Assembly (NCBI GenBank): GCA_963678065.2
Contig: CAXXVZ010000005.1
Coordinates: forward strand, 1,088,001 to 1,152,000
DNA from: Treponemataceae bacterium
GTDB taxonomy: Bacteria > Spirochaetota > Spirochaetia > Treponematales > Rectinemataceae
Length of the DNA: 64,000 nt
Direction of reading: 5' to 3'
Shown here: in pieces, positions 11,152-48,271 of the stretch
Layout: each line of letters starts with the position of its first letter
Numbering within the stretch: position 1 is the stretch's first letter
Position numbers and translations under genes: made by a program
Notes under the pieces: model-generated
What the model was told of the DNA's origin: nothing
Databases searched by the model: none
The model's input: the letters and a program-made list of their open reading frames with translations, nothing else

Positions 11152-11217
11152 ATGACAGCTCCTTCCTTTACGGGTCGCTTGCACGGATTCAGGCCGCCGA
11201 TGTCTCGACGCTCGGCA

Positions 11218-16966: not shown

Positions 16967-17016
16967 AATTTCATATGAAATTTTACATTGACTAAATGTA
17001 ACTATCGAGCTATATT
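16967..17016 (+). promoter_or_regulatory. Sigma70-type promoter with two operator-like palindromes
   Basis: TTGACT(16988)-17 nt-TATATT(17011). Perfect palindrome AATTTCATATGAAATT at 16967-16982. TTACATT-N5-AATGTAA overlaps the -35. Confidence 0.7.
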
Positions 17017-17023
17017 CAGCCCG

Positions 17024-17953: not shown

Positions 17954-17954
17954 A

Positions 17955-21333: not shown

Positions 21334-21373
21334 ATGGGCCCTGCTGGACTTGAACCAGCGACCTGCGGATTAT
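21334..21373 (-). repeat. 3' fragment of tRNA-Ile(CAU), att-like scar 1
   Basis: Minus strand ATAATCCGCAGGTCGCTGGTTCAAGTCCAGCAGGGCCCA covers the T-arm and acceptor end. 38/40 identical to 29929-29968. Confidence 0.85.
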
Positions 21374-29928: not shown

Positions 29929-29971
29929 ATGGGCCCTGCTGGACTTGAACCAGCGACCGACGGATTATGAG
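29929..29971 (-). repeat. 3' half of tRNA-Ile(CAU), att-like scar 2
   Basis: Minus strand CTCATAATCCGTCGGTCGCTGGTTCAAGTCCAGCAGGGCCCA runs from anticodon loop (CAT) to acceptor. The 5' half is absent. Confidence 0.85.
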
Positions 29972-30382
29972 ACAGAAATTTTACATATCACACTGTGTCT
30001 CTGTATGCCAAGATAATATGCAACTCTTTTCCTGTCAATATCATAGCGTATCATAATATGTTAATATATTTTTTATAATGCTGTCATTTATCTCATACTT
30101 CTATCTCATCCTGATTTCCCGGAAAATTGTAGCTATGAATAAATATGTCTATATTATAAATAGAAATGATTCACCATCCGAGAGCGTTGCATAGCTGTAT
30201 TTGTAGCTATACTTCTTGCCCATGAAAATATGTAACTTCTATTTGGATATGAAGTTACCAATTCCCTAGTTACAATGCGCCGGGAAATCAAGTCTCATAC
30301 GAGAATGTTTATTACAAGTCCGAATTGATAGATTTCGATTTCCACACAAAGCTACTAATTATTATCAACTACTTCCTTCGTT

Positions 30383-30457
30383 TTATCCGAAATTCAGATA
30401 CACGAAATTAGACGCTATCGGGACCGTCATACCCTTCGGCTCGATACTCGAAATTCA
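30383..30457. repeat. Partial copy of the module-boundary repeat
   Basis: TTATCCGAAATTCAG.TACACG.AATTAG....ATCGGG...CCCTTCGGCTCGATAC.CGAAATTCA matches 32117-32192. Confidence 0.75.
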
Positions 30458-30858
30458 TCTACTCGGCAGCTCTTCAAGGCCTCGGCAGACTGTCACGGCC
30501 TCGATGAGCACGCCTCTCCAGCTTGGAAGGCCGGGGTAATAGGCCGACTGCCTCCTAAGCAGTAGGTCATCCCCAAGGGACATCGAACCGCAGTTGCCGA
30601 GATGAAAAGCAGCAGCCCGCAAAGGTACTGCTCGCATCGACCAACCAGGCCCCGCCGCGAACCCGCGACGTAGGCGCTGTGCGCGATGATCGCGCTTGCG
30701 CGTAAGTTCCGGGTTCGCGCATGTCCTCGCGAATAGAAGGCGCGCCAGGACGGCGCGGCCTCGAAGATAGAGCCGCCCGCCCCGCGACTACTGTCGCGAA
30801 GGGGCGGGCGAGGATTGAGGGGCGAATTTAGAGGGGGTCTGACCCCCAGGGCGCGTCA

Positions 30859-31269
30859 TCAGGGGGTTTCACGCCAACGAGTAACAACCCACTTACCTGC
30901 GATCAATGAGATGTCTAGAGTAGCCCACACTCCTATCCCCGCCTGAAGTATATCCTTGCTGTTCTGATCCCTTATAACGAAGGAATAGCGCATATGGATA
31001 ACTCCCGACTTGAAGACATTTGAAAAAACGAACACAGGGAAGATAGTCAGCGCCTTAACCCCTTGCTTCCCATTACTGACTGAGAGAATCGAGTGATATA
31101 TATCATCTTGAATATACTCACTCCTTGGCAATGCTACAGCAGAATCGGAGAGGAATGTCTGCCTCACGGCTTGAATAGTCTTCAACGAAGACAGGTAGCA
31201 GAAGCCGATATAGACGACCACAAGAGCTAGAGCACAGACTGCCATGACCTTAAATGTACTCCTTCTCAT
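30859..31269 (-). CDS. Putative immunity protein 4 (N-terminal signal/TM)
   Basis: Directly downstream of the amidase toxin tip, GAGGTG RBS, hydrophobic N-terminus, low GC. Confidence 0.6.
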   Translation of the reverse strand: MRRSTFKVMAVCALALVVVYIGFCYLSSLKTIQAVRQTFLSDSAVALPRSEYIQDDIYHSILSVSNGKQGVKALTIFPVFVFSNVFKSGVIHMRYSFVIRDQNSKDILQAGIGVWATLDISLIAGKWVVTRWRETP

Positions 31270-31281
31270 GTTGTTATCACC

Positions 31282-31941
31282 TCACGGGTATACCGATGAT
31301 ATGTGAAAGAATATCAACGCATTATCGCCGCCAGAAAGTCCAGTGATTGGTTGATCGTGACGAGATACTGTATGAGCGGAATACGAAACCACTCCATTAT
31401 CTACAGAGGTGACAACTCCAAAGTGATGAACAGTTGCTCCTTCATCACGAGACCATCCGACCAGATCTCCTGGTTGAGTAGGAGTACCCGCAGCCGTATT
31501 CAATAATCCAGGTGAGCTCTCTAGGTAATTAGCAAGCCCGCCAGCTGTTGCCCAGGCGCTTGTGAAAGATCCATTGAAGCGACCAAGAATATCATACGAT
31601 CCGCTAGTAAAGTTCCAATCCGAATTCCGTGGAAGGCCGCCAGCGGCTAGACACTGTGATGCAAAGTTGGCGCAATCGCCACTACCTCGGACAGCGTTCA
31701 CGACTGAAGCGACTCCGCGACTCAAATCATATGCAGGATTAGAACTCAGGTCATACGTGTGCGCATAATCAACAGCGGCTGATCTATCATATACAGCATA
31801 GGATGCACCAGAAGTGTCAGCAGTTATCGTTGAGTATGCTTCGCTTATTGCTTGGGTAGCTTCAGCACTACCGCTGTAATGGTTTAGTGCCTCGTAGAAG
31901 GCTTCCGCATCCAACCCGGACGGATCCGTGAAGGATAGAGG
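31282..31941 (-). pseudogene. Orphan Rhs C-terminus 4: putative amidase (Amidase_6-like) toxin
   Basis: In-frame 'PLSFTDPSGL' junction at the 5' end. YDRSAAVDYA, DCANFASQCL..GG, HHFG, YSAHT motifs. Confidence 0.75.
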
Positions 31942-32116
31942 TCTCTCCCTATTTCCCGATATTGCCTATAGATAAGCCCTGTCCCGCGTGCGTGCTTTAT
32001 GGTTCAGGTCCGCTGTCAGAGATCGCTCACAAGGGTCACTGCTTCCCTTCCGGTTCGTATGATATATCGCCGTGTCCCTGCCCACAAGGGCAGGGAGGTA
32101 GAAGTCCCGTCGCTTG

Positions 32117-32280
32117 TTATCCGAAATTCAGGTACACGTAATTAGCCACAATCGGGTCTGCCTTCCCCTTCGGCTCGATACACGAAATTCATAGGCATGG
32201 AGTCAAGCATTCGGATGGGTGTCTTCCCATAGCCACGGGGCTGCGCGACTACTGTCGCGATGCCCCGCGGCAGTTCTTCA
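32117..32280. repeat. Module-boundary structured repeat, copy A
   Basis: About 140 nt similar to 41130-41270 and 47451-47590. Confidence 0.85.
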
Positions 32281-32353
32281 GCCGTACCATCAAAAACACC
32301 GCGCAACAAAAAAGCAGTTCACGCTGATTCGGATCTTTTCTTGCCTCGGATAC

Positions 32354-32400
32354 ACAAAGGCCGCCCCAGCATACACTGAAGCGGCCTTTGTCTTTTTTTT
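32354..32400 (+). terminator. Intrinsic terminator
   Basis: ACAAAGGCCGC-loop-GCGGCCTTTGT followed by CTTTTTTTT. Confidence 0.8.
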
Positions 32401-32403
32401 CTT

Positions 32404-32465
32404 GCCTAACCTTAAAGTTGAGCTGCAACGCGACACGCGTTGTCAGCTCGAACTTGGCGTTAGGC
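32404..32465 (-). other. Integron-type attC site
   Basis: Minus strand GCCTAAC-GCCAA-GTTCGAGC-TGACAACGCG-TGT-CGCGTTGCA-GCTCAAC-TTTAAG-GTTAGGC: R'', L'', L', R' boxes with two unpaired bases. Confidence 0.85.
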
Positions 32466-32494: not shown

Positions 32495-33019
32495 TCAATA
32501 ATCCTTATAAATCACCTTCAGCATTTTCTTCTCTACATCAAACCAAAGCGAAACATAAGTCTCAGTGACATACGATTTCCCTGTTCCTTTCTCCTTAGCA
32601 AAAAATGAGAGACTAAGCGGAAATTCAATGACTTCATGACTAAGGCCAACGATTTCATCATCAGTTGGAACAACGATATCATATAAGACTTGCCCTATAT
32701 TCCCAAGAATCTTTTTCCCTGTAACAAGTCCCCAGATAGTACGTCTGCAACTATTTTCTGAATAAACATAATAGTATTCGACAACATTCTCTTCTTTTTT
32801 TACATTTGGATTGTACAATTTTGTATCTCTGAATTTGACAGCGATATATGGTTCCCCGAACACCATTGGTATTTGATTAGTATCTTTAGCTCTCAATCCA
32901 AAGTTCATTGGGAACTTGGGTAAATTATCAATTTCTTTGGGATTGAATTCCTGTGAATACACCACCCCCAGGGAAATTGAAATAAGTAGGACAATAAATG
33001 CTAAAAGAGTTCTTGCCAT
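32495..33019 (-). CDS. Putative periplasmic immunity protein 3
   Basis: Overlaps the toxin tip stop, signal peptide MARTLLAFIVLLISISLGVVYSQ, very low GC. Confidence 0.65.
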   Translation of the reverse strand: MARTLLAFIVLLISISLGVVYSQEFNPKEIDNLPKFPMNFGLRAKDTNQIPMVFGEPYIAVKFRDTKLYNPNVKKEENVVEYYYVYSENSCRRTIWGLVTGKKILGNIGQVLYDIVVPTDDEIVGLSHEVIEFPLSLSFFAKEKGTGKSYVTETYVSLWFDVEKKMLKVIYKDY

Positions 33020-33585
33020 ATGATGTATCCTTGACTGGCTGGATTCCTATTACCGCTGAAGGGCGTATAAGTTTTATTGACTACCCCGGACTCAGCATTT
33101 GGCGCGGTCTGTCTCGGATCTTTATTGTGAATTGCTTCCCATGTCGTACCGGGAGCAGAGGCATCCACGATCTGTTTTGTTACTTCATCGCCTATCTGCC
33201 CTACGCCGTAGTTAACATGATCATTTGGCTTTTCATATGAGTAAAAATTCAAAACACCTGCATCACCTTGTCTGTTTGTATTTACATCCTTAAATTTTCC
33301 AACAAAATTCGAGTTTGCCATACCATTTGCAGTTAGGCGGTCAACGTCTGCTCCCATGGCCCTAAGTGAACCTATACCTACACCACTACAATCAGCTTTT
33401 GTTGTTGTGGTTCCCGAGCCATACTCTACGCCAACATATTCTCTAATCTTTTCCGCAAACTGCAAATTTAGGTCTGTGGGGCTTCTTAGTGAATTTGTAT
33501 CCCGATCATAGAATTCATCGCCGTACAGCTGAGCACCTTCAATCTCCCGCAACCCTGTCGGATCTGTGGACTTTACTGGATTCTC
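33001..33585 (-). pseudogene. Orphan Rhs C-terminus 3: NlpC/P60-like (papain-fold) toxin
   Basis: 'NPVKSTDPTGL' junction. Y.G..Y, DCSG and downstream HV catalytic-like motifs. Confidence 0.6.
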
Positions 33586-33793: not shown

Positions 33794-34795
33794 CTATCCT
33801 GGCCGACCTTCCGGGACAAGGCGGGCGAGCCTTTTGATATAGTCCCTGTCCACCTCCGCATAGATCGCCTGCTCCCTCGGGTGGTAGCGCCGATAGATCC
33901 GCTTAAGGTTCTCCGTCACGACGTGCGTGTACCGCGCCGTCGTCTCGACTCCTGCGTGACCCAAGAGTTCCTGGATCTGGCGCACGCTCACGCCGCGGCT
34001 TAAAAGATGGGTCGCGGTGGCATGCCGGACCGAGTGGGCCGACAGGGTCGGGTCGTCCATACCGAAGCGCCGCAGGAGGGTTCGGAAACGCTCACTCACA
34101 CTCGCTGGCCTCACATGGCTCCCTGTCCTCGGTCCGCAGGTCCCCGTGAATATCCAGGCCTGCGGATCATGGGCGCGGTTCCCGAGGTACAGAAGCAGCA
34201 CATCCCGCGCGACCTCCGAGATCGGCACGAGCCTGTCCTTGTCACCCTTGCCCCGCACGCGCATGATCCGGCGCTCGAAGTCCACGTCGCCCACCGTAAG
34301 GCCCGCAACTTCGCCCACACGAAGGCCAGCCGCGTACACGAGCTCGAAGAGCGCGCGATCCCGCAATCCCTGCGTCGTCGTCGTATCGAGCTCGTCAAGA
34401 AAGCGCTGCATCTCCGTTTCTGTGAACGCGCGGCGGCGTACAGACTCCGGGGGGAGCGGATCACCCAGTTGCCCGGCGGGGTTGTCGTCGATAAGCCCTG
34501 AGCGGTACAGACAGGCGTACAGAAGCCGTACCATCCCGAAGCGACTATTGACCGTCGTGTGCTTAAGCCGTTCTCCCGTCGTCTTCGACAGTCGCGCCGC
34601 GAGATCCTCGCGGTAGCCAAGGAGCTGCGCCGGCGTGACCTGACGTATATCGCCTATCGCGTGCTCTTCGGTCCAGCGGTAATACCCTATGATCGTAGCA
34701 CGCGCGTGGGCCATGTAGCACGCGCCGATCCGCCTGGCCACGAGGTCCTCGCTCACCAGGTGCAGTCCCAAAGCTTGTACGGCCTCGCCAGTCAC
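33794..34795 (-). CDS. Tyrosine recombinase (XerC/D-like), catalytically complete
   Basis: GLRVGE, GKGDKDR, HSVRH, LLGH, TARY. Confidence 0.93.
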   Translation of the reverse strand: MTGEAVQALGLHLVSEDLVARRIGACYMAHARATIIGYYRWTEEHAIGDIRQVTPAQLLGYREDLAARLSKTTGERLKHTTVNSRFGMVRLLYACLYRSGLIDDNPAGQLGDPLPPESVRRRAFTETEMQRFLDELDTTTTQGLRDRALFELVYAAGLRVGEVAGLTVGDVDFERRIMRVRGKGDKDRLVPISEVARDVLLLYLGNRAHDPQAWIFTGTCGPRTGSHVRPASVSERFRTLLRRFGMDDPTLSAHSVRHATATHLLSRGVSVRQIQELLGHAGVETTARYTHVVTENLKRIYRRYHPREQAIYAEVDRDYIKRLARLVPEGRPG

Positions 34796-35826
34796 GATCG
34801 GAACTCCCAGCTTCCGCGCGGGTGCGCCGCGTCCACCGCCGCGCGCAGGCTCTCCTTGCTCCGCCGCAGGTAGGTCTGTGTGCTGCCTAAGTTCCGAAAC
34901 CCGACCAAGATTTGCACGTGCCGAAGGTCGCAGCCTGACTCGACCAGGTGCGCCCCCAGGCTCGTCCGAAAGCCGTAGCTTGTGATCATCGGCAATCCCT
35001 CACTCGCACAGGTCTCGGCCAAAACCTCGTTGATCACCTGAGTCAGCCTCCCGTGCCCCGCGCCGAAGAGCGTGTGCGCATACCTCCGCTCGTACTCGTG
35101 AAACACAAGTTTCCGTCGCGGCAGATACTCCTTGAGCACCCCCGCCGCGTAGCTCGTCAGGAAGGCCGTCCGTCCCTGCCCCGAGCGCCCGCTCCGAACC
35201 CACACTGTCCGCTCGCGAAGATCAAGGTCAGCCGGTTCGAGCGCGGCCGCCTCACTCGCGTGCAAGCCCGCAGCGTACATGAGTTCCGCCGCCACGTGCA
35301 CCCGATAGGTCTTTACCACCTTCCACCACGGCCGCACCTCATCGAAGCGCGACAGGGCCGCAAGGAGTCTCGCCATCTCCTCGACCGTCAGCGCATTCTC
35401 CGACAGATGCTCTCCCACCCGCACCCGACGGATCTCGCGGAAGGGATTCGTCCGTATCGTCCCCGTCTTCACGAGGTAGTCGAAGAACCGCCTGGCCGCT
35501 TTCAGATGGTTGTTGATCGTCCCCGCGTTGTACGGCCGCCCTGTCGCTGCTGTCATCGTCGACAGCTTCACCTGGTAGCGCAGAGCCTCAGCAAGCCCTA
35601 CCTCCGCAACCTCGAGTTCCTCCGCTTCCAGCCATGAGCCGACGGTCCGCGCAAGCGTGCGTATCGACTCGTAACCCTGATCAGTTACCTTCGGCTGTTC
35701 TTCAGCGAGAAAGGCTTCGATCTGCGCCGAAAGCCGTACGGAGTATATGCCATCCACGTTCGCCTCTCTTCCCCGCCGGAATTGCGCGACCAGATTGGTA
35801 ATTCCTTGTCGCGCCAGGGGCAACAC
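34792..35826 (-). CDS. Tyrosine recombinase-like protein with degenerate active site
   Basis: GLHASE, GRSGQGR, YGFR, LVGF, TQTY; SAM-like N-terminal region. Confidence 0.85.
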   Translation of the reverse strand: MLPLARQGITNLVAQFRRGREANVDGIYSVRLSAQIEAFLAEEQPKVTDQGYESIRTLARTVGSWLEAEELEVAEVGLAEALRYQVKLSTMTAATGRPYNAGTINNHLKAARRFFDYLVKTGTIRTNPFREIRRVRVGEHLSENALTVEEMARLLAALSRFDEVRPWWKVVKTYRVHVAAELMYAAGLHASEAAALEPADLDLRERTVWVRSGRSGQGRTAFLTSYAAGVLKEYLPRRKLVFHEYERRYAHTLFGAGHGRLTQVINEVLAETCASEGLPMITSYGFRTSLGAHLVESGCDLRHVQILVGFRNLGSTQTYLRRSKESLRAAVDAAHPRGSWEFRS

Positions 35827-36306
35827 TCGCTATCGGTAGTCAGTGCCCAGTTCTGCCCAGACTGACCAGATTTATGCCGTTGATCCGGAGAGTCGTTCTG
35901 CCATCGCCTCAGGACTCGGAATCATCGACAGATCCACCGCCCCAATCTCCGCGTCCTCGCGAAGCCGGTAATAGGCTCGCGAGCGTTCCGAGCCCCCTCG
36001 CGCAATCGACACGTAGTCGTACTCGACGAGCTGCCGCAGACTCTGCTTGATCCATGTATGCCCCAGCCCGGTCAGCTCCCGTACCTGCCGCTGCGTGAAG
36101 CTCACCTCTTCAGCCCGTAAGTGCTGCGCTCTCGCCTCGCGGCCCACCCACGTACGCAACTCGCCGTACAGTGTGTAGCGTAATCTAGAAATACCCGAAA
36201 AGATCAAACTGGAATGGACAGAAAAATCGTCAGAATTCCCCATAAAAATCGTGGGGAGGAAGTGGCGATGAAAACCCTGTAGGATTTATCCAGCAGGGAG
36301 GAGGGA

Positions 36307-37779
36307 ATGCTCCACATGAACCAGATTGATCACGTCAAAGATTTGCAAAGGCAGGGCTATGGTCCCTGCGAGATCGCTGAACGGCTGGGAATCGATCGAA
36401 AAACAACAGCGAAGTATATGAAGCAGGAGGACTTCAACGCCTCTACCGAAGTGCCCCGCGAGCTTCCCTCGAAACTTGATCGATGGAAGCCAACCATCGA
36501 TCAATGGCTTGCCGAAGACCTGAAGATGCGTTTCAAGCAGCGCCATAGGGCCATGAGGATCCATACAAGGCTTCTGGAAGAACACCCCGACGACTACGAC
36601 TGCTCATATCCTTTGGTCCAGCGCTATGTCAAACGGCGGAAAGCGGCCAGGAAAGAAGCGGAGGGGTTTCTTGAGCTCGTCTGGTCGAAAGGCGAGGCGC
36701 AGGCCGATTTCGGAGAGGCAGAACTGATCGAGGCCGGCGTTCGAAGGACCGTCAAATACCTGACCTTGACCTTTCCCTTCAGCAATGCGGGCTTTACGCA
36801 GTGTTTCAGCGGCGAGACGGCCGAATGTGTTTCCCAGGGGCTCAAAGATATATTCAGCCACATAGGTGGCGTTCCCGCCAGGATCGTGTTCGACAACGCA
36901 ACGGGCGTAGGCAGACGGGTCCGCGACCGTGTCACCTTGAGCCAGCTTTTCCTTCGGTTCAAATGCCACTATGGCTTTGCGGTCAGCTTCTGCAACCCTG
37001 CTTCAGGCCATGAGAAAGGGAATGTCGAAAACAAGATCGGCTATGCGAGAAGGAACTTCTTCGTTCCTCTGCCGGTTGTGGACAGCCTCGAGTCTTGGAA
37101 CAAGGAATTGCTCGAAAAAGCGGCGAAAGATCATGACCGATCGCATTACAAGAAAAATCAGAATATTGCCGAGTTGTTCGAAGAGGAGCGGCAGTCTTTA
37201 GGGCTTTTGCCGGTGCGAAGCTTCATCGTCGAGCGTTTCGAGCGAGTATCCACGGATGGCTACGGAAAGTTCTGCATTGACGGAAAGCATTGGTATTCAA
37301 GCGCTCCCGAATGCGGGAACAGCGAAGTGACCGTAGGGCTCAAGGCGCATGAACTCGTCGTGTACCGCAGCGAAGGAACCCCGTTGTGTGTCCACCGAAG
37401 AGTCTATGGCGACGAGCGGAGCGACAGCTGCGATTACCGAACAAGCCTTGAAACCCTCATGAAGAAGCCTGGCGCATGGATCAATAGCGCCTTTAGGGCA
37501 GGCGTTGACGATACCATACGAGTCGCGATGGACGAACTCTCAAAGCCTGATCTGCGCAATGTGCTGAAAGTCCTGGTGAAAAGCAGTACGACCTTTGGGT
37601 TCGACGTCGCCATGACCTCGCTTGAGGAAGCGATTGCCCGAGGCCGGCTGGACAGTTTCAGCCTTAGCGCGGTTGCTTCCAGGGTCGCCTTTGATGGGCT
37701 TCACGGCATTCCCTCCGAGGGACCCGACCTCGGAGCCTACGATCGCGCCCTCATGAGCAACTCGGAGACCGTGTCATGA
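36307..37779 (+). CDS. istA: IS21 transposase
   Basis: N-terminal HTH, AQADFG, FDN, EKGNVE DDE motifs. Confidence 0.95.
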   Translation: MLHMNQIDHVKDLQRQGYGPCEIAERLGIDRKTTAKYMKQEDFNASTEVPRELPSKLDRWKPTIDQWLAEDLKMRFKQRHRAMRIHTRLLEEHPDDYDCSYPLVQRYVKRRKAARKEAEGFLELVWSKGEAQADFGEAELIEAGVRRTVKYLTLTFPFSNAGFTQCFSGETAECVSQGLKDIFSHIGGVPARIVFDNATGVGRRVRDRVTLSQLFLRFKCHYGFAVSFCNPASGHEKGNVENKIGYARRNFFVPLPVVDSLESWNKELLEKAAKDHDRSHYKKNQNIAELFEEERQSLGLLPVRSFIVERFERVSTDGYGKFCIDGKHWYSSAPECGNSEVTVGLKAHELVVYRSEGTPLCVHRRVYGDERSDSCDYRTSLETLMKKPGAWINSAFRAGVDDTIRVAMDELSKPDLRNVLKVLVKSSTTFGFDVAMTSLEEAIARGRLDSFSLSAVASRVAFDGLHGIPSEGPDLGAYDRALMSNSETVS

Positions 37780-38555
37780 GAAAAGCGCGTGTCAATCGTG
37801 CCGAACTGCGCAGCGAAATCTCCGTACTGCTGCGCAAGATGGCCTTCAGCCAGACCGCGGTAAAGATCTGCGAGGAAGAGGCCAAGGCACCCCAGGAAGA
37901 GTTTCTCCTGAAGATCCTGAAGCGAGAGATGGCTAACCGCGACGATGTCCGCAGGGCACGATTCCTTCATGAAGCGGCCTTCCCCGTCTACAAAACCTTC
38001 GAGGGCTTTGATTTCTCCTGCGTGAAGCTGCCGCCGGCGCTTTCGAAACAGGAAATGATGACCACCCAGTTCGTCGCCGAGAAGAAAAACTTGGTGCTTT
38101 ACGGCCCCGTTGGAACTGGAAAGACACATCTTGCCACAGCCCTTGGCGTCACCGCGTGCTCTCGCACCTTCCGTACCAGGTTCTTTACCGCTGCAGAGCT
38201 GGTGGTAAGGCTTTCCGAAGCCCTTAAGGAAGGCTCGCTTGAGCGGCTTGTTATGTCCATCGCTCGGGCTGATCTCTTGATCATAGACGAATGGGGCTAT
38301 GTCCCCGTCGACCGGCAAGGAGCCCAGCTCCTGTTCAGGATAATTTCCGATTCCTATGAGCGCCGAAGCGTTATTCTCACGACCAATCTTGAATTCTCCA
38401 AATGGGGGACAATCTTCACGGACGATCAGATGGCTGCCGCCATGATCGACAGGCTTGCCCACCATGGTCACATTATTCTCTTCGAAGGTGAAAGCTACCG
38501 GATGAAACACGCACTCATGCGGCAGAAAGGCCAGGCACAATTACCCACCGGCTGA
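37776..38555 (+). CDS. istB: IS21 helper ATPase
   Basis: GPVGTGKTHLA, LLIIDEWGY, TTNL.FSKW, DRLAHH. Confidence 0.95.
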   Translation: MRKARVNRAELRSEISVLLRKMAFSQTAVKICEEEAKAPQEEFLLKILKREMANRDDVRRARFLHEAAFPVYKTFEGFDFSCVKLPPALSKQEMMTTQFVAEKKNLVLYGPVGTGKTHLATALGVTACSRTFRTRFFTAAELVVRLSEALKEGSLERLVMSIARADLLIIDEWGYVPVDRQGAQLLFRIISDSYERRSVILTTNLEFSKWGTIFTDDQMAAAMIDRLAHHGHIILFEGESYRMKHALMRQKGQAQLPTG

Positions 38556-40046
38556 TGGGTGTTTTTGTACGATTTTTTCGGGTATTTCGCCTTGACGAAA
38601 CACAGTACAGCCCCACCGCCCCCGCGGGTAGCTCCCGTACCGTCGAGCTCATCACCCCCTCCACCATGATCGTGTACGCTACCCGGTAGTCCTCCAGGTC
38701 GCAGCGGATGAAGCTCACTGCCCCCTCACGCTCCTCACGCTTCTGGTACTGCCTCAGAAAGCACACGCTCGCGATCAGATCCAGAAACCGGTCATGGTCG
38801 CGGCGGCTCCGCATGAGACTCGTCGGAAACCCCAGGTGCACCGCAAAGTCGTTCACGATCGCCACCTTCCGCACCAGCCGCTGCGCCGCCTGGTGCGCCC
38901 GTATGATCCGCTCCGTCTCTCCGCGCCCAGTCCGCAAGCGTTCCAGCGAATACTTCTGCCGCTGCGCCTCGTGGATCCGCGCAGTCTGGATCTTCGACTC
39001 GTCCGCGTTCACCACGAAGCACCGGCTCGCGTTCTCCGGATTCACCGCATGGCTCGTCCCCGACAGCACGCTCGACACCACCACCGGCGTCCTGACCACC
39101 CGGCTCTGCATCGTCCCCGTCTCCGGGTCCTTCATCGTCACCAGCCTCGACAGCTCCTTGCCCGACAGCATCTCCCGGATCTGGTGCTCCACCACCTCCC
39201 CGTGCACCGCTTCTCCCAGAATCAGAAACTTGTGGCTCAGGTCCTCGATGTAGTTCAGTGCCTGGTCCGACAGGCTCGTCACCGCCACCACCTCCTCGGG
39301 CGGCATAAGCTTCCGCACCGTCTCCACGAGATAGCTCTTTCCCGCCGCGGACTGCGACAGAATCAAGACCGAGATCGGATCGTCCAGCTTCCGGCTCGAC
39401 GCGCACAGGTACAGAAGCTGCTTATTCAGGTCCTCTCCCACGTAGCCCAACGCGCTGAGATCCTCCACGATCCGCTCAAACAGGCGCGGGTCGCGCAACA
39501 GCGACAGCCCCAGCTCGCGGTCGGCCGCGCTCATCGGGACGCCCGCCTTCGTATTTCCCCGCCGCAGGGCCTCGTCGCGCTCGCACTCGAGATTCTCAAG
39601 GATCAGCACGAGGTCCTTCTGTGCCCGCGCGAGCTCCCACCCGAAGCTCCGCGCCACCGCCTGCGCAAAGCCGCCCCTCGCCTTCGCCGCGTACAGGTCC
39701 ACCGTGTCGTAGTAGCTCATCATCCCTGCACTCGCCCGGATCGCCACCTTCAGGCTCGTCACAAACAGCTGCCTGACCCCGCCTATGCGGTACGTCATCG
39801 CCCCCACACGGAACACATGGAACAGCCCATCCCGCTCGACGTGCAGCTCCGGTCCATCCGTCTCGTCCATGAAGCCGGCCGCTTCGCCCGGTCTCGCCTC
39901 CTCCTCTGCTGCCCCTGCCGGGGGCGACTCCGGGGGAACTGCGTCACCTTCGGTGACGACCTTCCCCGCGGAGTTGGGGGGAAGAAACGCGGCCCCAGGA
40001 AGGGACTCATCAGCGACCGCGAGTACCCGCTCGCTCTGGTCTCCCC

Positions 40047-40331
40047 TCATACCGCACCACGCCGCCCGGAGCGCCGCTCCCGGTCAAAGCTCTTCTTCGC
40101 CTCGTGCACATAGCTGTTCACCTGCCCATACGCCGAGCGAAAGGCGTGCAGGTTCACCACCGCCCGCTTCCCCCAAAACTCACCCTGCGCCCGCCCAAGC
40201 CCCTCTCCCCGGAAGCTCATTCGACAGGCCAGCGATTCCGACACCGGAATGCAGCTCACCTCCTCCAGCGTACACCCTGCCATGATCAGATACGCCGCTT
40301 CGTACAGATCCGTTACCTCCGCAGTTTCCAT
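40047..40331 (-). CDS. Small conserved element protein (~94 aa; possibly DUF5659-like)
   Basis: AAGGAGG RBS before METAEVTDLYEAAYL. Stop overlaps the ATPase start. Duplicated at 46369..46653. Confidence 0.65.
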   Translation of the reverse strand: METAEVTDLYEAAYLIMAGCTLEEVSCIPVSESLACRMSFRGEGLGRAQGEFWGKRAVVNLHAFRSAYGQVNSYVHEAKKSFDRERRSGRRGAV

Positions 40332-40494
40332 CCCCCGCCTCCTTTTTGCGGGCAATCTCGTCATCTCCCTGTCCTGTATGCTATCCTGTCTTCGCGTCAT
40401 GACGAGGTTCCCTCGTTGTGTCCTCGCCCGTTTCCCCGAAGCATCCACCACGACCTCAGGGGAAACGGGCTCCTTTGTACCTGACATAAAACCA

Positions 40495-40569
40495 TGTCAA
40501 GTACTATTATTGGTTTTGAGTATTATACATCATGTATTATATCGTCAAGCGGTAGGGTATACTTTTTCT
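40495..40569. promoter_or_regulatory. Divergent control region of the element
   Basis: AT-rich. Palindrome ATACAT-C-ATGTAT (40525-40537). TATACT at 40558 just before the HTH start. Confidence 0.55.
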
Positions 40570-40977
40570 ATGCCACAGCGACCGAAATATATTCTGCCGG
40601 ATATCTCCGAATCCTCTCACAATGTCGGTCAAAATATTGCCGCACTGCGCAAAAAAAAAGGACTCAGCCAAAAAGAACTGGCTCTGAAAATCGGCATCAC
40701 CCAGGCCTTGCTTTCACACTATGAAACCGCCCGTCTGAGTATTCCCGTCGAGGTTGTCATTCAGATTTCCATTTCGTTGAACGTACACGCGGATGTGATA
40801 TTGGGAATCGGAGCATCGGCACCGCTCGACGATGACTCGCCAAGCCGCAGAATTGTGCAGCGGGCGAAACTGATCGAGCGTCTTCCCGCCTTCGACCAGA
40901 AAGCCCTGCTCAAAACCATCGACAATGCGTTGAAAGGCGCCGGCATCACAACGGAAGATCCAAAAGTCTCTCACTGA
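40570..40977 (+). CDS. XRE-family HTH repressor
   Basis: IAALRKKKGLSQKELALKIGITQALLSHYET. Confidence 0.9.
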   Translation: MPQRPKYILPDISESSHNVGQNIAALRKKKGLSQKELALKIGITQALLSHYETARLSIPVEVVIQISISLNVHADVILGIGASAPLDDDSPSRRIVQRAKLIERLPAFDQKALLKTIDNALKGAGITTEDPKVSH

Positions 40978-41054
40978 CTGATGCTTCTGCTCCCTGCCCT
41001 CGACGACGGCACCATCAAACACAGTCTCCCGACTGCGCCTAATTCTCGGTTGGC

Positions 41055-41270
41055 GGGTCGCGCCGCCTCACGCTGCGCGTGGAGTGGCGCTCCCCCAAAT
41101 CCGCTTTCGCGGACTTCGCCAACCTACGCATTAGCCACAATCGGGTCTGCCACTCCTTTCGGCTCGATACACGAAATTCACAAGTATGGAGTCACGCATT
41201 CGGATATTTGTCTTCCCATAGCCAAGGGGCTGCGCGTCGAAGACGCGATGCCACGCGGCAGTTCTTCAGC
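41055..41270. repeat. Module-boundary structured repeat, copy B
   Basis: Homologous to 47377-47590 and 32141-32280; hairpins conserved despite sequence change. Confidence 0.85.
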
Positions 41271-41332
41271 TTGCCATTCACGCCTTGAAACAGGCTCGCA
41301 GCCGAACTCGGATCTTTTCTTGCCTCGGATAC

Positions 41333-41378
41333 ACAAAGGCCGCCTCAGCATACACTGAAGCGGCCTTTGTCTTTTTTT
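41333..41378 (+). terminator. Intrinsic terminator
   Basis: Same hairpin and T-tract as 32354-32400. Confidence 0.8.
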
Positions 41379-41381
41379 CTT

Positions 41382-41444
41382 GCCTAACCTTCCGCTTAAA
41401 CGGCGAGGGCTTTTGGCCCGAGTCCGGTTGAAGCCGCGTTAGGC
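41382..41444 (-). other. Integron-type attC-like site
   Basis: Minus strand GCCTAAC-GCGG-CTTCAACC...GTTTAAG-CGGAAG-GTTAGGC. The immunity gene's TAA lies inside R''. First spacer is 1 nt short of canonical. Confidence 0.72.
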
Positions 41445-41708
41445 TTTGGGGTCAGGCCCCAAGGGGGCTTCTTTACGAAAAATGCTCAAATCCGACTTCA
41501 TTTGCCTAAGGAGAAAACTGCATGCCTCAGCCTCTGAGGAGAATTGCTTAATGTCTTTTTTTTGCCCTCGTTCAAAGAAGTATATCTCCCAACATCCACC
41601 TTCCTCGATTAGGCATGTTCGATCTTCGCGAAATAGCTTGTTGAATGAATACCACGAACTCGGTACATTCAGTTGGTTCAATTCTCGTTCGAGCTCTTTT
41701 ATATTCAT
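41439..41708 (-). CDS. Putative cytoplasmic immunity protein 2
   Basis: ATGA overlap with the TNT-like tip. WEIYFFERG..F.SE.EAC pattern. Confidence 0.7.
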   Translation of the reverse strand: MNIKELERELNQLNVPSSWYSFNKLFREDRTCLIEEGGCWEIYFFERGQKKDIKQFSSEAEACSFLLRQMKSDLSIFRKEAPLGPDPKA

Positions 41709-42346
41709 TTCAACACCTCGACCAATTTAGCATCGATAAGGCTTCCCAAAGTGCTACGGAACATGTATTGAATACCACCACCGGCACTTCCATAATATGG
41801 CCCGGCAATACCAGCTTTTACTTCTAGATCGATCTTCGATCTATATGCAGTGTATTCACCAGAGTTCCATGGGGGTAATGCTCTTTCTTCTTTTGGAGTC
41901 CCTATCGGAGAAGCATATGAACCACGTGGATTCCCATATCTATCAAACGTCGAACCTGCGGGTAGGGTTGTTTCCCATGAAGCGCCAAACAGAAAGCCAT
42001 CAAACAAAGGATAGCAGACGTCTTCGACCAATGCTGGCGGTGGCGGCAATATCCCGGCTGTATTTAGCCCACCATATAGCCCAGTTACAACTGCAACAGC
42101 GGCGGTGGCAATATTATTAGTTGCACTAGTTACTACGTTTTTAGCAAGCTTCGCAGCCGATTCAAGCGAATTTATTATATTGCTAACAACATTTTCAGCA
42201 TCCGGCGGATCGCTCGAAGGAACAATATTCCCGGTACCAAGTCCTGATATTAGGCTGCTATCGGACGTCTCGCCCGTTGATTCGAACCGTTTCAGATCCC
42301 CCATCCCTGCCAACCCCGTGGGATCCGTGAACTTTACTGGATTCTC
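41705..42346 (-). pseudogene. Orphan Rhs C-terminus 2: TNT/DUF4237-like NAD glycohydrolase toxin
   Basis: 'NPVKFTDPTGL' junction. LP.G..FDRYG...GSY.SP.GTP..ERALP...P.YG..GGG.QY signature. Confidence 0.85.
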
Positions 42347-42554: not shown

Positions 42555-43556
42555 CTATCCTGGCCGACCTTCCGGGACAAGGCGGGCGAGCCTTTTGATA
42601 TAGTCCCTGTCCACCTCCGCATAGATCGCCTGCTCCCTCGGGTGGTAGCGCCGATAGATCCGCTTAAGGTTCTCCGTCACGACGTGCGTGTACCGCGCCG
42701 TCGTCTCGACTCCTGCGTGACCCAAGAGTTCCTGGATCTGGCGCACGCTCACGCCGCGGCTTAAAAGATGGGTCGCGGTGGCATGCCGGACCGAGTGGGC
42801 CGACAGGGTCGGGTCGTCCATACCGAAGCGCCGCAGGAGGGTTCGGAAACGCTCACTCACACTCGCTGGCCTCACATGGCTCCCTGTCCTCGGTCCGCAG
42901 GTCCCCGTGAATATCCAGGCCTGCGGATCATGGGCGCGGTTCCCGAGGTACAGAAGCAGCACATCCCGCGCGACCTCCGAGATCGGCACGAGCCTGTCCT
43001 TGTCACCCTTGCCCCGCACGCGCATGATCCGGCGCTCGAAGTCCACGTCGCCCACCGTAAGGCCCGCAACTTCGCCCACACGAAGGCCAGCCGCGTACAC
43101 GAGCTCGAAGAGCGCGCGATCCCGCAATCCCTGCGTCGTCGTCGTATCGAGCTCGTCAAGAAAGCGCTGCATCTCCGTTTCTGTGAACGCGCGGCGGCGT
43201 ACAGACTCCGGGGGGAGCGGATCACCCAGTTGCCCGGCGGGGTTGTCGTCGATAAGCCCTGAGCGGTACAGACAGGCGTACAGAAGCCGTACCATCCCGA
43301 AGCGACTATTGACCGTCGTGTGCTTAAGCCGTTCTCCCGTCGTCTTCGACAGTCGCGCCGCGAGATCCTCGCGGTAGCCAAGGAGCTGCGCCGGCGTGAC
43401 CTGACGTATATCGCCTATCGCGTGCTCTTCGGTCCAGCGGTAATACCCTATGATCGTAGCACGCGCGTGGGCCATGTAGCACGCGCCGATCCGCCTGGCC
43501 ACGAGGTCCTCGCTCACCAGGTGCAGTCCCAAAGCTTGTACGGCCTCGCCAGTCAC
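42555..43556 (-). CDS. Tyrosine recombinase (XerC/D-like), catalytically complete
   Basis: Same protein sequence as 33794..34795. Confidence 0.93.
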   Translation of the reverse strand: MTGEAVQALGLHLVSEDLVARRIGACYMAHARATIIGYYRWTEEHAIGDIRQVTPAQLLGYREDLAARLSKTTGERLKHTTVNSRFGMVRLLYACLYRSGLIDDNPAGQLGDPLPPESVRRRAFTETEMQRFLDELDTTTTQGLRDRALFELVYAAGLRVGEVAGLTVGDVDFERRIMRVRGKGDKDRLVPISEVARDVLLLYLGNRAHDPQAWIFTGTCGPRTGSHVRPASVSERFRTLLRRFGMDDPTLSAHSVRHATATHLLSRGVSVRQIQELLGHAGVETTARYTHVVTENLKRIYRRYHPREQAIYAEVDRDYIKRLARLVPEGRPG

Positions 43557-44587
43557 GATCGGAACTCCCAGCTTCCGCGCGGGTGCGCCGCGTCCACCGC
43601 CGCGCGCAGGCTCTCCTTGCTCCGCCGCAGGTAGGTCTGTGTGCTGCCTAAGTTCCGAAACCCGACCAAGATTTGCACGTGCCGAAGGTCGCAGCCTGAC
43701 TCGACCAGGTGCGCCCCCAGGCTCGTCCGAAAGCCGTAGCTCGTGATCATCGGCAATCCCTCACTCGCACAGGTCTCGGCCAAAACCTCGTTGATCACCT
43801 GAGTCAGCCTCCCGTGCCCCGCGCCGAAGAGCGTGTGCGCGTACCCCCGCTCGTAGCCCCTGAACACAACCTCACGCCGGCAGAGATACTCCTTGAGCAC
43901 CCCCGCCGCGTAGCTCGTCAGGAATGCCGTCCGCCCCTGCCCCGAGCGCCCGCTCCGAACCCACACCGTCCGCTCGCGAAGATCAAGGTCAGCCGGTTCG
44001 AGCGCAGCCGCCTCACTCGCGTGCAAGCCCGCAGCGTACATGAGTTCCGCCGCCACGTGCACCCGATAGGTCTTTACCACCTTCCACCACGGCCGCACCT
44101 CATCGAAGCGCGACAGGGCCGCAAGGAGTCTCGCCATCTCCTCGACCGTCAGCGCATTCTCCGACAGATGCTCTCCCACCCGCACCCGACGGATCTCGCG
44201 GAAGGGATTCGTCCGTATCGTCCCCGTCTTCACGAGGTAGTCGAAGAACCGCCTGGCCGCTTTCAGATGGTTGTTGATCGTCCCCGCGTTGTACGGCCGC
44301 CCTGTCGCTGCTGTCATCGTCGACAGCTTCACCTGGTAGCGCAGAGCCTCAGCAAGCCCTACCTCCGCAACCTCGAGTTCCTCCGCTTCCAGCCATGAGC
44401 CGACGGTCCGCGCAAGCGTGCGTATCGACTCGTAACCCTGATCAGTTACCTTCGGCTGTTCTTCAGCGAGAAAGGCTTCGATCTGCGCCGAAAGCCGTAC
44501 GGAGTATATGCCATCCACGTTCGCCTCTCTTCCCCGCCGGAATTGCGCGACCAGATTGGTAATTCCTTGTCGCGCCAGGGGCAACAC
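43553..44587 (-). CDS. Tyrosine recombinase-like protein with degenerate active site
   Basis: Near-identical to 34792..35826. Confidence 0.85.
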   Translation of the reverse strand: MLPLARQGITNLVAQFRRGREANVDGIYSVRLSAQIEAFLAEEQPKVTDQGYESIRTLARTVGSWLEAEELEVAEVGLAEALRYQVKLSTMTAATGRPYNAGTINNHLKAARRFFDYLVKTGTIRTNPFREIRRVRVGEHLSENALTVEEMARLLAALSRFDEVRPWWKVVKTYRVHVAAELMYAAGLHASEAAALEPADLDLRERTVWVRSGRSGQGRTAFLTSYAAGVLKEYLCRREVVFRGYERGYAHTLFGAGHGRLTQVINEVLAETCASEGLPMITSYGFRTSLGAHLVESGCDLRHVQILVGFRNLGSTQTYLRRSKESLRAAVDAAHPRGSWEFRS

Positions 44588-44632
44588 TCGCTATCGGTAG
44601 TCAGTGCCCAGTTCTGCCCAGACTGACCAGAT

Positions 44633-46372
44633 TTATGCCGTTGATCCGGAGAGTCGTTCTGCCATCGCCTCAGGACTCGGAATCATCGACAGATCCACCG
44701 CCCCAATCTCCGCGTCCTCGCGAAGCCGGTAATAGGCTCGCGAGCGTTCCGAGCCCCCTCGCGCAATCGACACGTAGTCGTACTCGACGAGCTGCCGCAG
44801 ACTCTGCTTGATCCATGTATGCCCCAGCCCGGTCAGCTCCCGTACCTGCCGCTGCGTGAAGCTCACCTCTTCAGCCCGTAAGTGCTGCGCTCTCGCCTCA
44901 CGGCCCACCCAGGTCCGAAGCTCGCCATACAGCCCCACCGCCCCCGCGGGTAGCTCCCGCACCGTGCTCGCAAGCACCCCCTCCACCATGATCGTGTACG
45001 CGATCCGGTAGTCCTCCAGGTCGCAGCGGATGAAGCTCACTGCCCCCTCACGCTCCTCGTGCTTCTGGTACTGCCTCAGAAAGCACACGCTCGCGATCAG
45101 GTCCAGAAACCGGTCGTGGTCCCGCCGGCTCCGCATGAGACTCGTCGGAAACCCCAGGTGCACCGCAAAGTCGTTCACGATCGCCACCTTCCGCACCAGC
45201 CGCTGCGCCGCCTGGTGCGCCCGTATGATCCGCTCCGTCTCTCCGCGGCCTGCCCGCAAGCGTTCCAGCGAATACTTCTGCCGCTGCGCCTCGTGGATCC
45301 GCGCAGTCTGACCTCTCGACTCGTCCGCGTTCACCACAAAGCACCGACTCGCGTTCTCCGGATTCACCGCGTGGCTCGTTCCCGACAGCACGCTCGACAC
45401 CACCACCGGCGTCCTGACCACCCGGCTCTGCATCGTCCCCGTCTCCGGGTCCTTCATCGTCACCAGCCTCGACAGCTCCTTGCCCGACAGCATCTCCCGG
45501 ATCTGGTGCTCCACCACCTCCCCGTGCACCGCTTCTCCCAGAATCAGAAACTTGTGGCTCAGGTCCTCGATGTAGTTCAGTGCCTGGTCCGACAGGCTCG
45601 TCACCGCCACCACCTCCTCGGGCGGCATAAGCTTCCGCACCGTCTCCACGAGATAGCTCTTTCCCGCCGCGGACTGCGACAGAATCAAGACCGAGATCGG
45701 ATCGTCCAGCTTCCGGCTCGACGCGCACAGGTACAGAAGCTGCTTATTCAGGTCCTCTCCCACGTAGCCCAACGCGCTGAGATCCTCCACGATCCGCTCA
45801 AACAGGCGCGGGTCGCGCAACAGCGACAGCCCCAGCTCGCGGTCGGCCGCGCTCATCGGGACGCCCGCCTTCGTATTTCCCCGCCGCAGGGCCTCGTCGC
45901 GCTCGCACTCGAGATTCTCAAGGATCAGCACGAGGTCCTTCTGTGCCCGCGCGAGCTCCCACCCGAAGCTCCGCGCCACCGCCTGCGCAAAGCCGCCCCT
46001 CGCCTTCGCCGCGTACAGGTCCACCGTGTCGTAGTAGCTCATCATCCCTGCACTCGCCCGGATCGCCACCTTCAGGCTCGTCACAAACAGCTGCCTGACC
46101 CCGCCTATGCGGTACGTCATCGCCCCCACACGGAACACATGGAACAGCCCATCCCGCTCGACGTGCAGCTCCGGTCCATCCGTCTCGTCCATGAAGCCGG
46201 CCGCTTCGCCCGGTCTCGGCTCCTCCTCTTTTGCCCCTGCCGGGGGCGACTCCGGGGGAACGTCGTCACCTTCGGTGACTGCGTTCCCCGCGGAGTGGGG
46301 GGGAAGAAACGCGGCCCCAGGAAGGGACTCATCAGCGACCGCGAGTACCCGCTCGCTCTGGTCTCCCCTCAT
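44633..46372 (-). CDS. P-loop ATPase related to the C-terminal part of mobile-element primase/helicases
   Basis: Walker A-like SQSAAGKS, SRKL..P, SRC...DES..QT..IH..QR, C-terminal winged-helix-like segment. No zinc-finger or toprim domain visible. Confidence 0.7.
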   Translation of the reverse strand: MRGDQSERVLAVADESLPGAAFLPPHSAGNAVTEGDDVPPESPPAGAKEEEPRPGEAAGFMDETDGPELHVERDGLFHVFRVGAMTYRIGGVRQLFVTSLKVAIRASAGMMSYYDTVDLYAAKARGGFAQAVARSFGWELARAQKDLVLILENLECERDEALRRGNTKAGVPMSAADRELGLSLLRDPRLFERIVEDLSALGYVGEDLNKQLLYLCASSRKLDDPISVLILSQSAAGKSYLVETVRKLMPPEEVVAVTSLSDQALNYIEDLSHKFLILGEAVHGEVVEHQIREMLSGKELSRLVTMKDPETGTMQSRVVRTPVVVSSVLSGTSHAVNPENASRCFVVNADESRGQTARIHEAQRQKYSLERLRAGRGETERIIRAHQAAQRLVRKVAIVNDFAVHLGFPTSLMRSRRDHDRFLDLIASVCFLRQYQKHEEREGAVSFIRCDLEDYRIAYTIMVEGVLASTVRELPAGAVGLYGELRTWVGREARAQHLRAEEVSFTQRQVRELTGLGHTWIKQSLRQLVEYDYVSIARGGSERSRAYYRLREDAEIGAVDLSMIPSPEAMAERLSGSTA

Positions 46373-46653
46373 ACCGCACCACGCCGCCCGGAGCGCCGCT
46401 CCCGGTCAAAGCTCTTCTTCGCCTCATGCACATAGCTGTTCACCTGCCCATACGCCGAGCGAAACGCACTCAGGTTCACCACCGCCCGCTTCCCCCAAAA
46501 CTCACCCTGCGCCCGTCCAAGCCCCTCTCCCCGGAAGCTCATTCGACAGGCCAGCGATTCCGACACCGGAATGCACCGCACCTCCTCCAGCGTACACCCT
46601 GCCATGATCAGATACGCCGCTTCGTACAGATCCGTTACCTCCGCAGTTTCCAT
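46369..46653 (-). CDS. Small conserved element protein
   Basis: Copy of 40047..40331. Confidence 0.65.
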   Translation of the reverse strand: METAEVTDLYEAAYLIMAGCTLEEVRCIPVSESLACRMSFRGEGLGRAQGEFWGKRAVVNLSAFRSAYGQVNSYVHEAKKSFDRERRSGRRGAV

Positions 46654-46891
46654 CCCCCGCCTCCTTTTTGCGGGGAATCTCGTCATCGTCCTGTCCTGTA
46701 TGCTATCCTGTCTTTGCGTCATGACGAGGTTCCCTCGTTGTGTCCTCGCCCGTTTCCCCGAAGCATCCACCACGACCTCAGGGGAAACGGGCTCCTTTGT
46801 ACCTGACATACAACCATGTCAAGTACTATTATTGGTTTTGAGTATTATACATCATGTATTATATCGTCAAGCGGTAGGATATACTTTTTCT

Positions 46892-47299
46892 ATGCCACAG
46901 CGACCGAAATATATTCTGCCGGATATCTCCGAATCCTCTCACAATGTCGGTCAAAATATTGCCGCACTGCGCAAAAAAAAAGGACTCAGCCAAAAAGAAC
47001 TGGCTCTGAAAATCGGCATCACCCAGGCCTTGCTTTCACACTATGAAACCGCCCGTCTGAGTATTCCCGTCGAGGTTGTCATTCAGATTTCCATTTCGTT
47101 GAACGTACACGCGGATGTGATATTGGGAATCGGAGCATCGGCACCGCTCGACGATGACTCGCCAAGCCGCAGAATTGTACAGCGGGCGAAACTGATCGAA
47201 CGTCTTCCCGCCTTCGACCAGAAAGCCCTGCTCAAAACCATCGACAATGCGTTGAAAGGCGCCGGCATCACAACGGAAGATCCAAAAGTCTCTCACTGA
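46892..47299 (+). CDS. XRE-family HTH repressor
   Basis: Same protein as 40570..40977. Confidence 0.9.
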   Translation: MPQRPKYILPDISESSHNVGQNIAALRKKKGLSQKELALKIGITQALLSHYETARLSIPVEVVIQISISLNVHADVILGIGASAPLDDDSPSRRIVQRAKLIERLPAFDQKALLKTIDNALKGAGITTEDPKVSH

Positions 47300-47376: not shown

Positions 47377-47590
47377 GGGGAGCGCCGTCCCAAGCCGTGC
47401 TTGGGAGAGCGCTCCCCCAAATCCGCTTTCGCGGACTTCGCCAACCTACGCATTAGACGCTATCGGGTCTGCCTTCCCCTTCGGCTCAATACTCGAAATT
47501 CACAAGTATGGAGTCAAGCATGCGGATGGTTGTCTTCCCATAGCCAAGGGGCTGCGCGACTACTGTCGCGATGCCCCGCGGCAGCTCTTC
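47377..47590. repeat. Module-boundary structured repeat, copy C
   Basis: Homologous to copies A and B. Confidence 0.85.
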
Positions 47591-47662: not shown

Positions 47663-48271
47663 TCAACCAGTCAGTGTTTTTTCAAAATTTACACCAGTTA
47701 TTTTTTTCTTCTGAATAGCCTTTTTTAGTTTTTCACTTACATAAAGGCCAGACGTAATCTTCCAAAGACTGTGATGTGCAGGCTTATGGAAAACACTGAA
47801 TTTTTCAACCTTATCTATAGAAAAGCACGGTTTCATAATCCGATCGGTACCTCGGACATACATTGTTTTTTGCACATCGATAACATCAAGCATTTTTGAG
47901 AATCGTAAAATAAAGTATATGCGCTGTTCTCCCCCACCATTTATTTTTGCTCTTATCCAATTAATTCCTTCATTACCAGATAAGTTTTCTTCAATGACAA
48001 CCTTTAGCCTCTCAGAAAATAAGGGCCAAGCCAAACTATTCGGTAAATAGTCGATCCATAGTTCTTTGATTTCTGAAAGGTCAGAGGACCTAATAAGCCC
48101 ATCTCCCTCTTTCGTCAATTTCACCAATGAAAACTCAAATGGCATTTCAGAAACACCATCGATCTCTGAAATCAACTCATGTGCCAACCGAGTTCCTTCT
48201 GGTGCAAACGCACTTGCTACTGGCGTGGAATCTGCACCACCAAATAGATAGTAATTCATCATTGCCACCAA
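47663..48271 (-). CDS. Putative immunity protein 1 (Imm11/DUF1629-like)
   Basis: Overlaps the rhs stop. DYL.N...PLFSERLK..I and LYVSEKLK..I...ITGV.F patterns; low GC. Confidence 0.7.
   Translation of the reverse strand: MVAMMNYYLFGGADSTPVASAFAPEGTRLAHELISEIDGVSEMPFEFSLVKLTKEGDGLIRSSDLSEIKELWIDYLPNSLAWPLFSERLKVVIEENLSGNEGINWIRAKINGGGEQRIYFILRFSKMLDVIDVQKTMYVRGTDRIMKPCFSIDKVEKFSVFHKPAHHSLWKITSGLYVSEKLKKAIQKKKITGVNFEKTLTG

Follow-up and report, generated by a model that had tools for sequence, protein, structure and literature searches.

Closed integron attC sites behind toxin-immunity pairs in recombinase-bearing Rhs-tip elements of a Rectinemataceae genome

In a stretch of 64,000 nucleotides (hereafter the window) from a Treponemataceae bacterium (genome G000; contig CAXXVZ010000005.1, positions 1,088,001 to 1,152,000), two displaced Rhs toxin-immunity pairs end in an integron attC site. 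Sites of the same anatomy occupy the corresponding position in related elements of other spirochaete genomes, and nearly all of them are in closed form. This pattern suggests that the integron enzyme may help to reshuffle toxin-tip weapons. Tentatively, and at somewhat less than an even chance, we favour the reading that attC has been built into Rhs-tip elements and may be used by the host IntI for exchange from element to element, providing these with a second excision register.

Site A (32404..32465, minus strand, 62 bp) lies 29 nt downstream of the Imm3 stop codon, while the stop codon of Imm2 falls inside the R'' box of site B (41382..41444, minus strand, 63 bp). The top strand of both sites is the minus strand, as it is for the toxin genes. 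Both are in closed form, the R boxes of each reading GCCTAAC (R'') and GTTAGGC (R') in agreement with RYYYAAC/GTTRRRY. Site A exhibits a 5-nt left spacer, an 8-nt L'' box with one extra base and a 6-nt right spacer; a second extra base is located six pairs beyond the first, and the L boxes pair at 7/7 positions. The extrahelical bases are likewise present in site B, whose left spacer measures 4 nt and whose L boxes contain one mismatch. Folding of site A is exceptionally stable (z -6.7; 0/200 shuffles equally stable), that of site B less so (z -1.4; 16/200). Due to its short spacer, its L mismatch and its weak folding we consider site B somewhat degenerate. A covariance model (R2) trained on 23 attC sites from arrays, taken from related genomes and from two class 1 integrons but not from the window, assigns 31.9 bits to site A (E 3e-5) and 23.6 bits to site B (E 0.004), the E-values being rough. 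These are the sole R2 matches with E<1 in the 64-kb window, and both are on the expected strand. An earlier model without base pairs (R1) matched neither site and was superseded by R2. By box layout and covariance score, sites A and B are confirmed as real attC sites. The original prediction, made from the letters of the window, had named both of them, had placed the Imm2 stop within R'' and had noted that Imm1 and Imm4 have no attC; all of this holds, a detector scan of the window finding no site behind either of the latter two genes. A search for relatives of site A among plasmids found none.

The bodies of A and B are unalike outside the boxes, while the stretches beyond R' (32329..32413 and 41308..41391) agree in 83 of 85 columns. 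As anticipated, the transition is sharp and located at R': the shared identity begins 3 nt inside the site, ahead of G|TT. Both stretches carry the same GC-rich hairpin, which on the plus strand leads into a run of T and is thus terminator-like and directed toward attC; a promoter and terminator scan returned nothing above chance. Adjacent to the constant stretch of A is a conserved non-coding segment (32117..32328) repeated at 41130-41307, at 47452-47590 and partly at 30383-30458. At 41000-41330 and in the copies of this region, the HTH gene is separated from attC by some 350 nt of non-coding DNA that is conserved, rich in hairpins and terminator-like at its plus-strand end. It has no match in Rfam, which over the window produced 0 matches at gathering score and 9 weak chance matches below threshold, and may represent an RNA or an origin.

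The locus which harbours the two sites is arranged on the minus strand as follows. Type II secretion genes are succeeded by a full-length Rhs gene (48259..53805; 1848 aa, TIGR03696 match) with an AHH nuclease tip after the motif NPLSFTDPSG, by Imm1 (47663..48271) of the Imm11 family according to Pfam, and by the conserved segment. The first element core (42555..47299) comprises an HTH repressor gene on the plus strand, orf146, orf579 and two tyrosine recombinases (42555-44587), and leads to displaced tip 2 (41705..42346; 213 aa, TNT-family domain), Imm2 (41439..41708; 89 aa) and site B. After the segment, the second core (35872..40977) contains the HTH repressor gene on the plus strand, orf146 and a split orf579, and is continued by a pair of Xer-like tyrosine recombinases (33794..35826) without the IntI insertion. 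Adjoining these are displaced tip 3 (33001..33585; 194 aa counted from its NP..TDPTG boundary), Imm3 (32495..33019; 174 aa, with a signal-peptide-like N terminus), which overlaps the stop of tip 3, and site A. A further copy of the segment precedes displaced tip 4 (Amidase_6) and Imm4 (30859..31947). Neither Imm2 nor Imm3 matches a family, and their immunity roles, like that of Imm4, are predicted from position. Tip 3 has no family hit; its DCSG motif suggests an NlpC/P60-like hydrolase. The two cores are 97-100% identical, orf579 of the second being split by an IS21-family element (36172-38604). An identical copy of this insertion is located at C5:796684-799116, and the joined, IS21-free form of orf579, for which the intact first core can account, is present in contigs of four sequencing runs.

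With a TIGR03696 core and three displaced tips beginning at NP..DPxG, the locus is an Rhs displaced-tip locus. Since the two cores agree up to the motif encoding NP..TDPxG, as do the two full Rhs genes of G000, the element probably integrates at this boundary and brings a tip together with its immunity gene. The upstream recombinase of the pair lacks the catalytic Arg and His, and the local recombinases score far under the TIGR02249 cut-off. Without the IntI-specific insertion they are not likely to use attC as a substrate, which speaks against the earlier proposal that the element's own enzymes exchange cassettes there. The orf579 product has homology with the C-terminal portion of CHC2/toprim primase-helicases from plasmids, and a search for relatives in phages found none. 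The element is widespread, accounting for 804 proteins among 8000 candidates and occurring in 28/401 genomes of a phylum sample and 19/401 of a class sample; collection scans with single proteins returned few loci (1, 5 and 0).

The original prediction had stated that IntI is absent, which is true of the window and not of the genome. G000 encodes an intact IntI at C3:97196-98137 (TIGR02249, 450.6 bits), on another contig than A and B and accompanied by its own array, whose attC sites measure 106-138 bp. The distant IntI which had been invoked thus exists, and in the family sample of Rectinemataceae IntI is present in 39/69 genomes. With IntI elsewhere and local recombinases that are not IntI, A and B do not form part of a complete integron. 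Neither do they constitute a CALIN, the two sites being 8.9 kb apart compared with a default of 4 kb (PMC4889954); they would cluster only under a 10-kb setting. A third site, C (G000:C5:1158471-1158530), is located outside the window, after an Imm26 gene identified by Pfam match. Its triplet is a compensated AAT/ATT with pairing kept, and altogether 3/5 toxin-immunity pairs of G000 end in attC. Sites A and C sit in decayed, coreless elements. The second full-length Rhs gene (L009:2384-8960, corresponding to G000:C5:1152383-1158959), to which site C belongs, is 91% identical to that of the window, is divergent from it and carries a different tip, Imm26, site C and a coreless element remnant. 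A pattern search recovered only A and C among the 69 family genomes; on viral contigs it gave 21 loci, for the most part ordinary cassette arrays that contain no tips; a scan with a g267-type site pattern gave 0 matches.

Element flanks were fetched from other genomes and tips listed via the DPxG motif. Seven duplicate or spurious rows were removed and two modules added, so that 42 modules were scanned up to 1.5 kb past the tip, five of these segments being shorter than 1.2 kb. Raw detector matches amount to 22/42 modules versus 4/420 shuffles. Matches in G599 and G135, both AT-rich with a TTT triplet, were dropped and counted as negative. Outside G000, credible sites are present in 17/37 modules, distributed over 8/18 other spirochaete genomes; these counts combine the matches of detectors 2 and 3, whose rules were adjusted after seeing these sites. 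The first two detectors overlooked site B or those of genus g267, and the looser detector has a background of 3 hits in 2.8 Mb, about 1 per Mb. The enrichment of attC after immunity genes expected for homologous elements is accordingly observed. As 22/42 modules are without a credible site, the element evidently functions without attC. Applied with default filters to 72 loci, R2 found the C-type sites of G280 and G016 and, weakly, that of G884. It missed the G-type sites of g267 because its training set is almost wholly C-type, and independent confirmation by R2 outside G000 is therefore limited to the G280 and G016 sites. Seventeen of 21 sites lie at most 30 nt from the nearest upstream stop codon, six of them with the stop inside the R box, and 14/21 are inverted relative to the adjoining immunity gene. 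IntI is encoded in 8/8 site-bearing genomes outside G000, the match in G1007 containing an internal stop. Nine of the 10 genomes without sites gave no IntI, while G135 has IntI yet no credible site. This co-occurrence is confounded by lineage, as the positives all belong to one class and several negatives are incomplete.

The sites of the elements differ in kind from those of arrays. Among 56 consecutive array cases, R'' is a perfect complement of the R' that follows in 6, and of the 5' end of its own cassette in 55. In the element sites, perfect pairing of R'' with its own R' is found in 21/23, which corresponds to the closed form of an excised circle; the detector favours R pairing, and a lower threshold brought in just one imperfect candidate. 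Eight different R'' heptamers remain fully paired, changes of the first base to A or C included. The triplets of the elements are GTT in 16, ATT in 4 and CTT in 3 cases (7/23 non-GTT), those of array sites GTT in 80/80. Since GC-rich arrays of viral contigs (loci selected by pattern) often contain closed GCCTAAC..GTTAGGC, sites A and B alone prove little, and it is the eight paired heptamers that carry the case. According to PMC2811028, IntI1 tolerates a changed first triplet base only if both partners share it; hence the non-GTT element sites should not be able to cycle through attI. Which extra base is found goes with the lineage of the host, for element sites as for array sites: in families f1 and f3 it is C in the element sites and in 75/80 array sites, in f92 and f72 it is G in 19/19 site rows and in the credible array sites, of which there are only six. 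Extra bases and unpaired spacers are kept over about a dozen unrelated bodies. In length, the element sites (58-87 bp) contrast with the host array sites (106-138 bp).

The modules also lack the marks of an inserted cassette. Between DPxG and the site, an upstream GTTRRRY boundary on the coding strand is absent from the modules of tip 2 and tip 3, immunity genes included; R'' complements its own R' instead. A tblastx comparison of 31 tip-immunity modules with 30 integron-region loci gave no match, so that the predicted occurrence of the same tips and immunity genes in cassette arrays is not borne out. No element opened at attC was found within an array. Taken together, the closed form, the inversions, the non-GTT triplets, the missing upstream boundary and the missing array tips speak against the idea of the original prediction that the element sites stem from array cassettes joined to a single constant site.

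Site B belongs to the same body family as a G016 site, and across genera the bodies are better conserved than their flanks (B versus G016, C versus G280), the same bodies recurring behind unrelated cargo. In genus g267, three bodies occur with unrelated immunity genes on one side and a single common segment on the other. Bodies of the same family agree here to 95%, the adjoining 40 nt toward the immunity gene to 53%; on the segment side the agreement is 71-78% regardless of the body. The predicted crossover box thus coincides with a sharp junction in both site orientations, at R' for A and B and on the immunity side in g267. The non-crossover edge is likewise a junction, as the three g267 bodies ahead of one shared segment show. 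In the contigs of four sequencing runs, no A-B excision distinguishable from shared sequence was found. Runs X1 and X3, which may be of the source sample, have the A and B modules unchanged. In run X6, two contigs show at 41400 the base that would pair, and there is no coverage over Imm2 and tip 2 or over Imm3. One contig joins 32392 to 41374, which is explicable by shared sequence and is not taken as recombination. As a separate observation, the first site is followed in G280 (L040:1271-1332) and G016 (L046, about 6130-6180), at a distance of about 120 nt, by another attC or attC core of opposite orientation, with a hairpin between the two.

On the reading we favour, an element circle with tip, immunity gene and attC would enter Rhs at NP..DPxG by means of its own recombinase pair, leaving attC intact and unopened inside the element. 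Host IntI, acting in trans, could then recombine attC with attC between element copies. IntI is described to excise between two attC sites in direct repeat (PMC5027507), and such excision would hold in either orientation of the sites to the genes. In a tandem array, attC-attC excision would free one core together with the downstream displaced tip, whereas excision in the DPxG register would release the tip that had arrived with the element. The second register might therefore re-couple silent tips and their immunity genes to a mobile core, which could return them to an expressed position or carry them to another cell. Exchange would be limited to element sites and would not involve attI, and a closed pool with common R boxes would retain perfect pairing after exchange. 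This reading is favoured by the frequency of sites in modules (17/37 and, in G000, 3/5, against 4/420 shuffles), by the presence of IntI in 8/8 site-bearing and 0/9 site-free genomes (G135 aside), and by the host-matched extra bases, the paired heptamers, the sharp junctions and the proximity to stop codons. It is weakened by the lack of any observed product, by the lineage confounding, by the degeneracy of B, the coreless state of A and C and the 22/42 siteless modules. Furthermore, IntI bottom-strand exchange alone does not explain the junction at the non-crossover edge, and no element has been seen opened at attC in an array.

Several other readings deserve consideration. One that we regard as unlikely takes the whole element for a self-integrating giant cassette, in which the Xer-like pair would target Rhs and host IntI would excise the other register; the attC sites would form a private, domesticated pool, with the changed first base insulating some of them from attI. 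If so, integrons would drive the turnover of polymorphic toxins outside any array and re-arm silent tips. Unlikely too, in our judgement, is that the sites are relics of tip-immunity modules which were once cassette circles, were captured via DPxG or by homology with attC unopened, and no longer use it. This would account for the closed form, the tight coupling to stop codons, both orientations, the host-like extra bases, the degeneration of B and the non-GTT triplets. It agrees poorly with bodies that are better conserved than their flanks across genera and recur behind unrelated cargos, with changes that are compensated rather than decayed (21/23 perfect), and with sampled arrays that contain no homologue of tip or immunity gene.

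Improbable as well is that the hairpin has been co-opted for another task, be it as the 3' end of the toxin-immunity RNA, as a single-strand origin of the primase-helicase or as a site of the element recombinases. Both orientations, the drifting first triplet base, the opposed sites around a hairpin in G280 and G016 and the hairpin-rich segment past R' would fit such a role. It would not predict extra bases and unpaired spacers to persist over about a dozen unrelated bodies, nor the failure to find sites in IntI-free genomes whose elements share the core; the recombinase pair lacks the IntI insertion, and attC is reported not to terminate transcription (PMC8876359). We consider it very doubtful that IntI inserts cassettes of the integron pool at a constant G|TTAGGC and thereby supplies tips and immunity genes. 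Unrelated bodies ahead of a sequence shared from R' and an IntI in the genome are what such insertion would produce, and, given the closed GCCTAAC..GTTAGGC sites of GC-rich viral-contig arrays, A and B by themselves could have arisen in this way. Yet among the cassettes of family arrays only 7/79 start with TTAGGC, arrays are closed in 6/56 cases, and the absence of an upstream cassette boundary and of array tips, the inverted and non-GTT sites and the size mismatch to host arrays (106-138 bp against 58-87 bp) all stand against it.

The element sites resemble the attC of integrons (PMC5027507, PMC2811028) in their R and L boxes, the extrahelical bases 6 bp apart and the unpaired spacers. Further likenesses are the size of 58-87 bp, the stop codon in or adjoining the R box and the score from a model trained on arrays. 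They differ in that there is no array, no recognised attI and no adjacent intI, in their closed form, in the compensated non-GTT triplets (7/23) and in being inverted to the preceding gene in two thirds of cases. According to PMC4889954, half of the CALIN occur in genomes with IntI, 431 single attC are left unexplained, and isolated attC are commonly dismissed as potential false positives. Our sites are comparable to such CALIN and single attC in having no neighbouring integrase and an IntI elsewhere in the genome; unlike CALIN, they are 9 kb apart with a whole integrative element between them, and recur at one fixed position of the element. As for Rhs, the displacement model of PMC2935791 invokes homologous or illegitimate recombination via a circle inserting at the core boundary, and an integrase is stated there as not known with Rhs. 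Our locus conforms to this C-terminal displacement in showing a full-length Rhs followed by displaced tip-immunity pairs, but differs from the model in that each tip sits on a recombinase-bearing element, many with attC. T6SS effector-immunity arrays of V. cholerae have been likened to integrons, with no evidence of an integrase (PMC5361080).

Further counterparts are the XerC/CHC2-toprim primase/HTH elements beside CdiA or Rhs, exemplified by the Enterobacter CdiA locus NZ_CP074172, which are likewise in tandem and have the same gene order: toxin, immunity gene, HTH gene on the other strand, primase-helicase, Xer-like recombinase, next tip. Our element deviates in having two recombinases and a shorter helicase-like protein, and the Enterobacter locus has no attC. 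A literature search confined largely to the main texts of open-access papers gave no publication that connects attC with toxin-immunity pairs and no description of this element family. The sites bear on how Rhs tips are circularised, moved and displaced. If IntI does use them, they would give attC and IntI a role outside arrays, would explain some of the isolated attC discarded as false positives and would represent natural attC altered at the base where cleavage takes place. As relics, too, they would show attC attached at the stop codon of a gene outside any cassette, a matter of interest for the genesis of cassettes.

We would like to add some observations on other mobile DNA and cargo. In the window, 3' fragments of a tRNA-Met(CAT) gene at 29930-29971 and 21335-21373 match the full tRNA at G000:C5:1160444-1160517, 42.5 kb away, and the region of the secretion and Rhs genes together with a sugar-transport block at 21.3-29.9 kb look like islands stacked at tRNA-Met(CAT). 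The G016 site is about 430 nt from a tRNA-Met(CAT). An attC ending in GTTGCAC directly precedes a 327-aa tyrosine recombinase at G000:C3:854377-854488 and 2358751-2358877 as well as in L139-L141 and L154; G000 has three copies of this arrangement, which is probably another mobile element targeting attC. Pairs resembling type II toxin-antitoxin systems, named by sequence resemblance, are frequent extra cargo (L040, L041, L044, L131, L128, L009) and adjoin the HTH gene or the recombinases. At 30109-30292 of the window, 184 bp identical to copies at C5 786780 and 842886, and skipped in the contig of one run, constitute a small non-autonomous mobile element. Finally, two pairs of glycyl-radical enzyme and activase are encoded amid sugar transport genes at 7721-11184 and 16988-20342.
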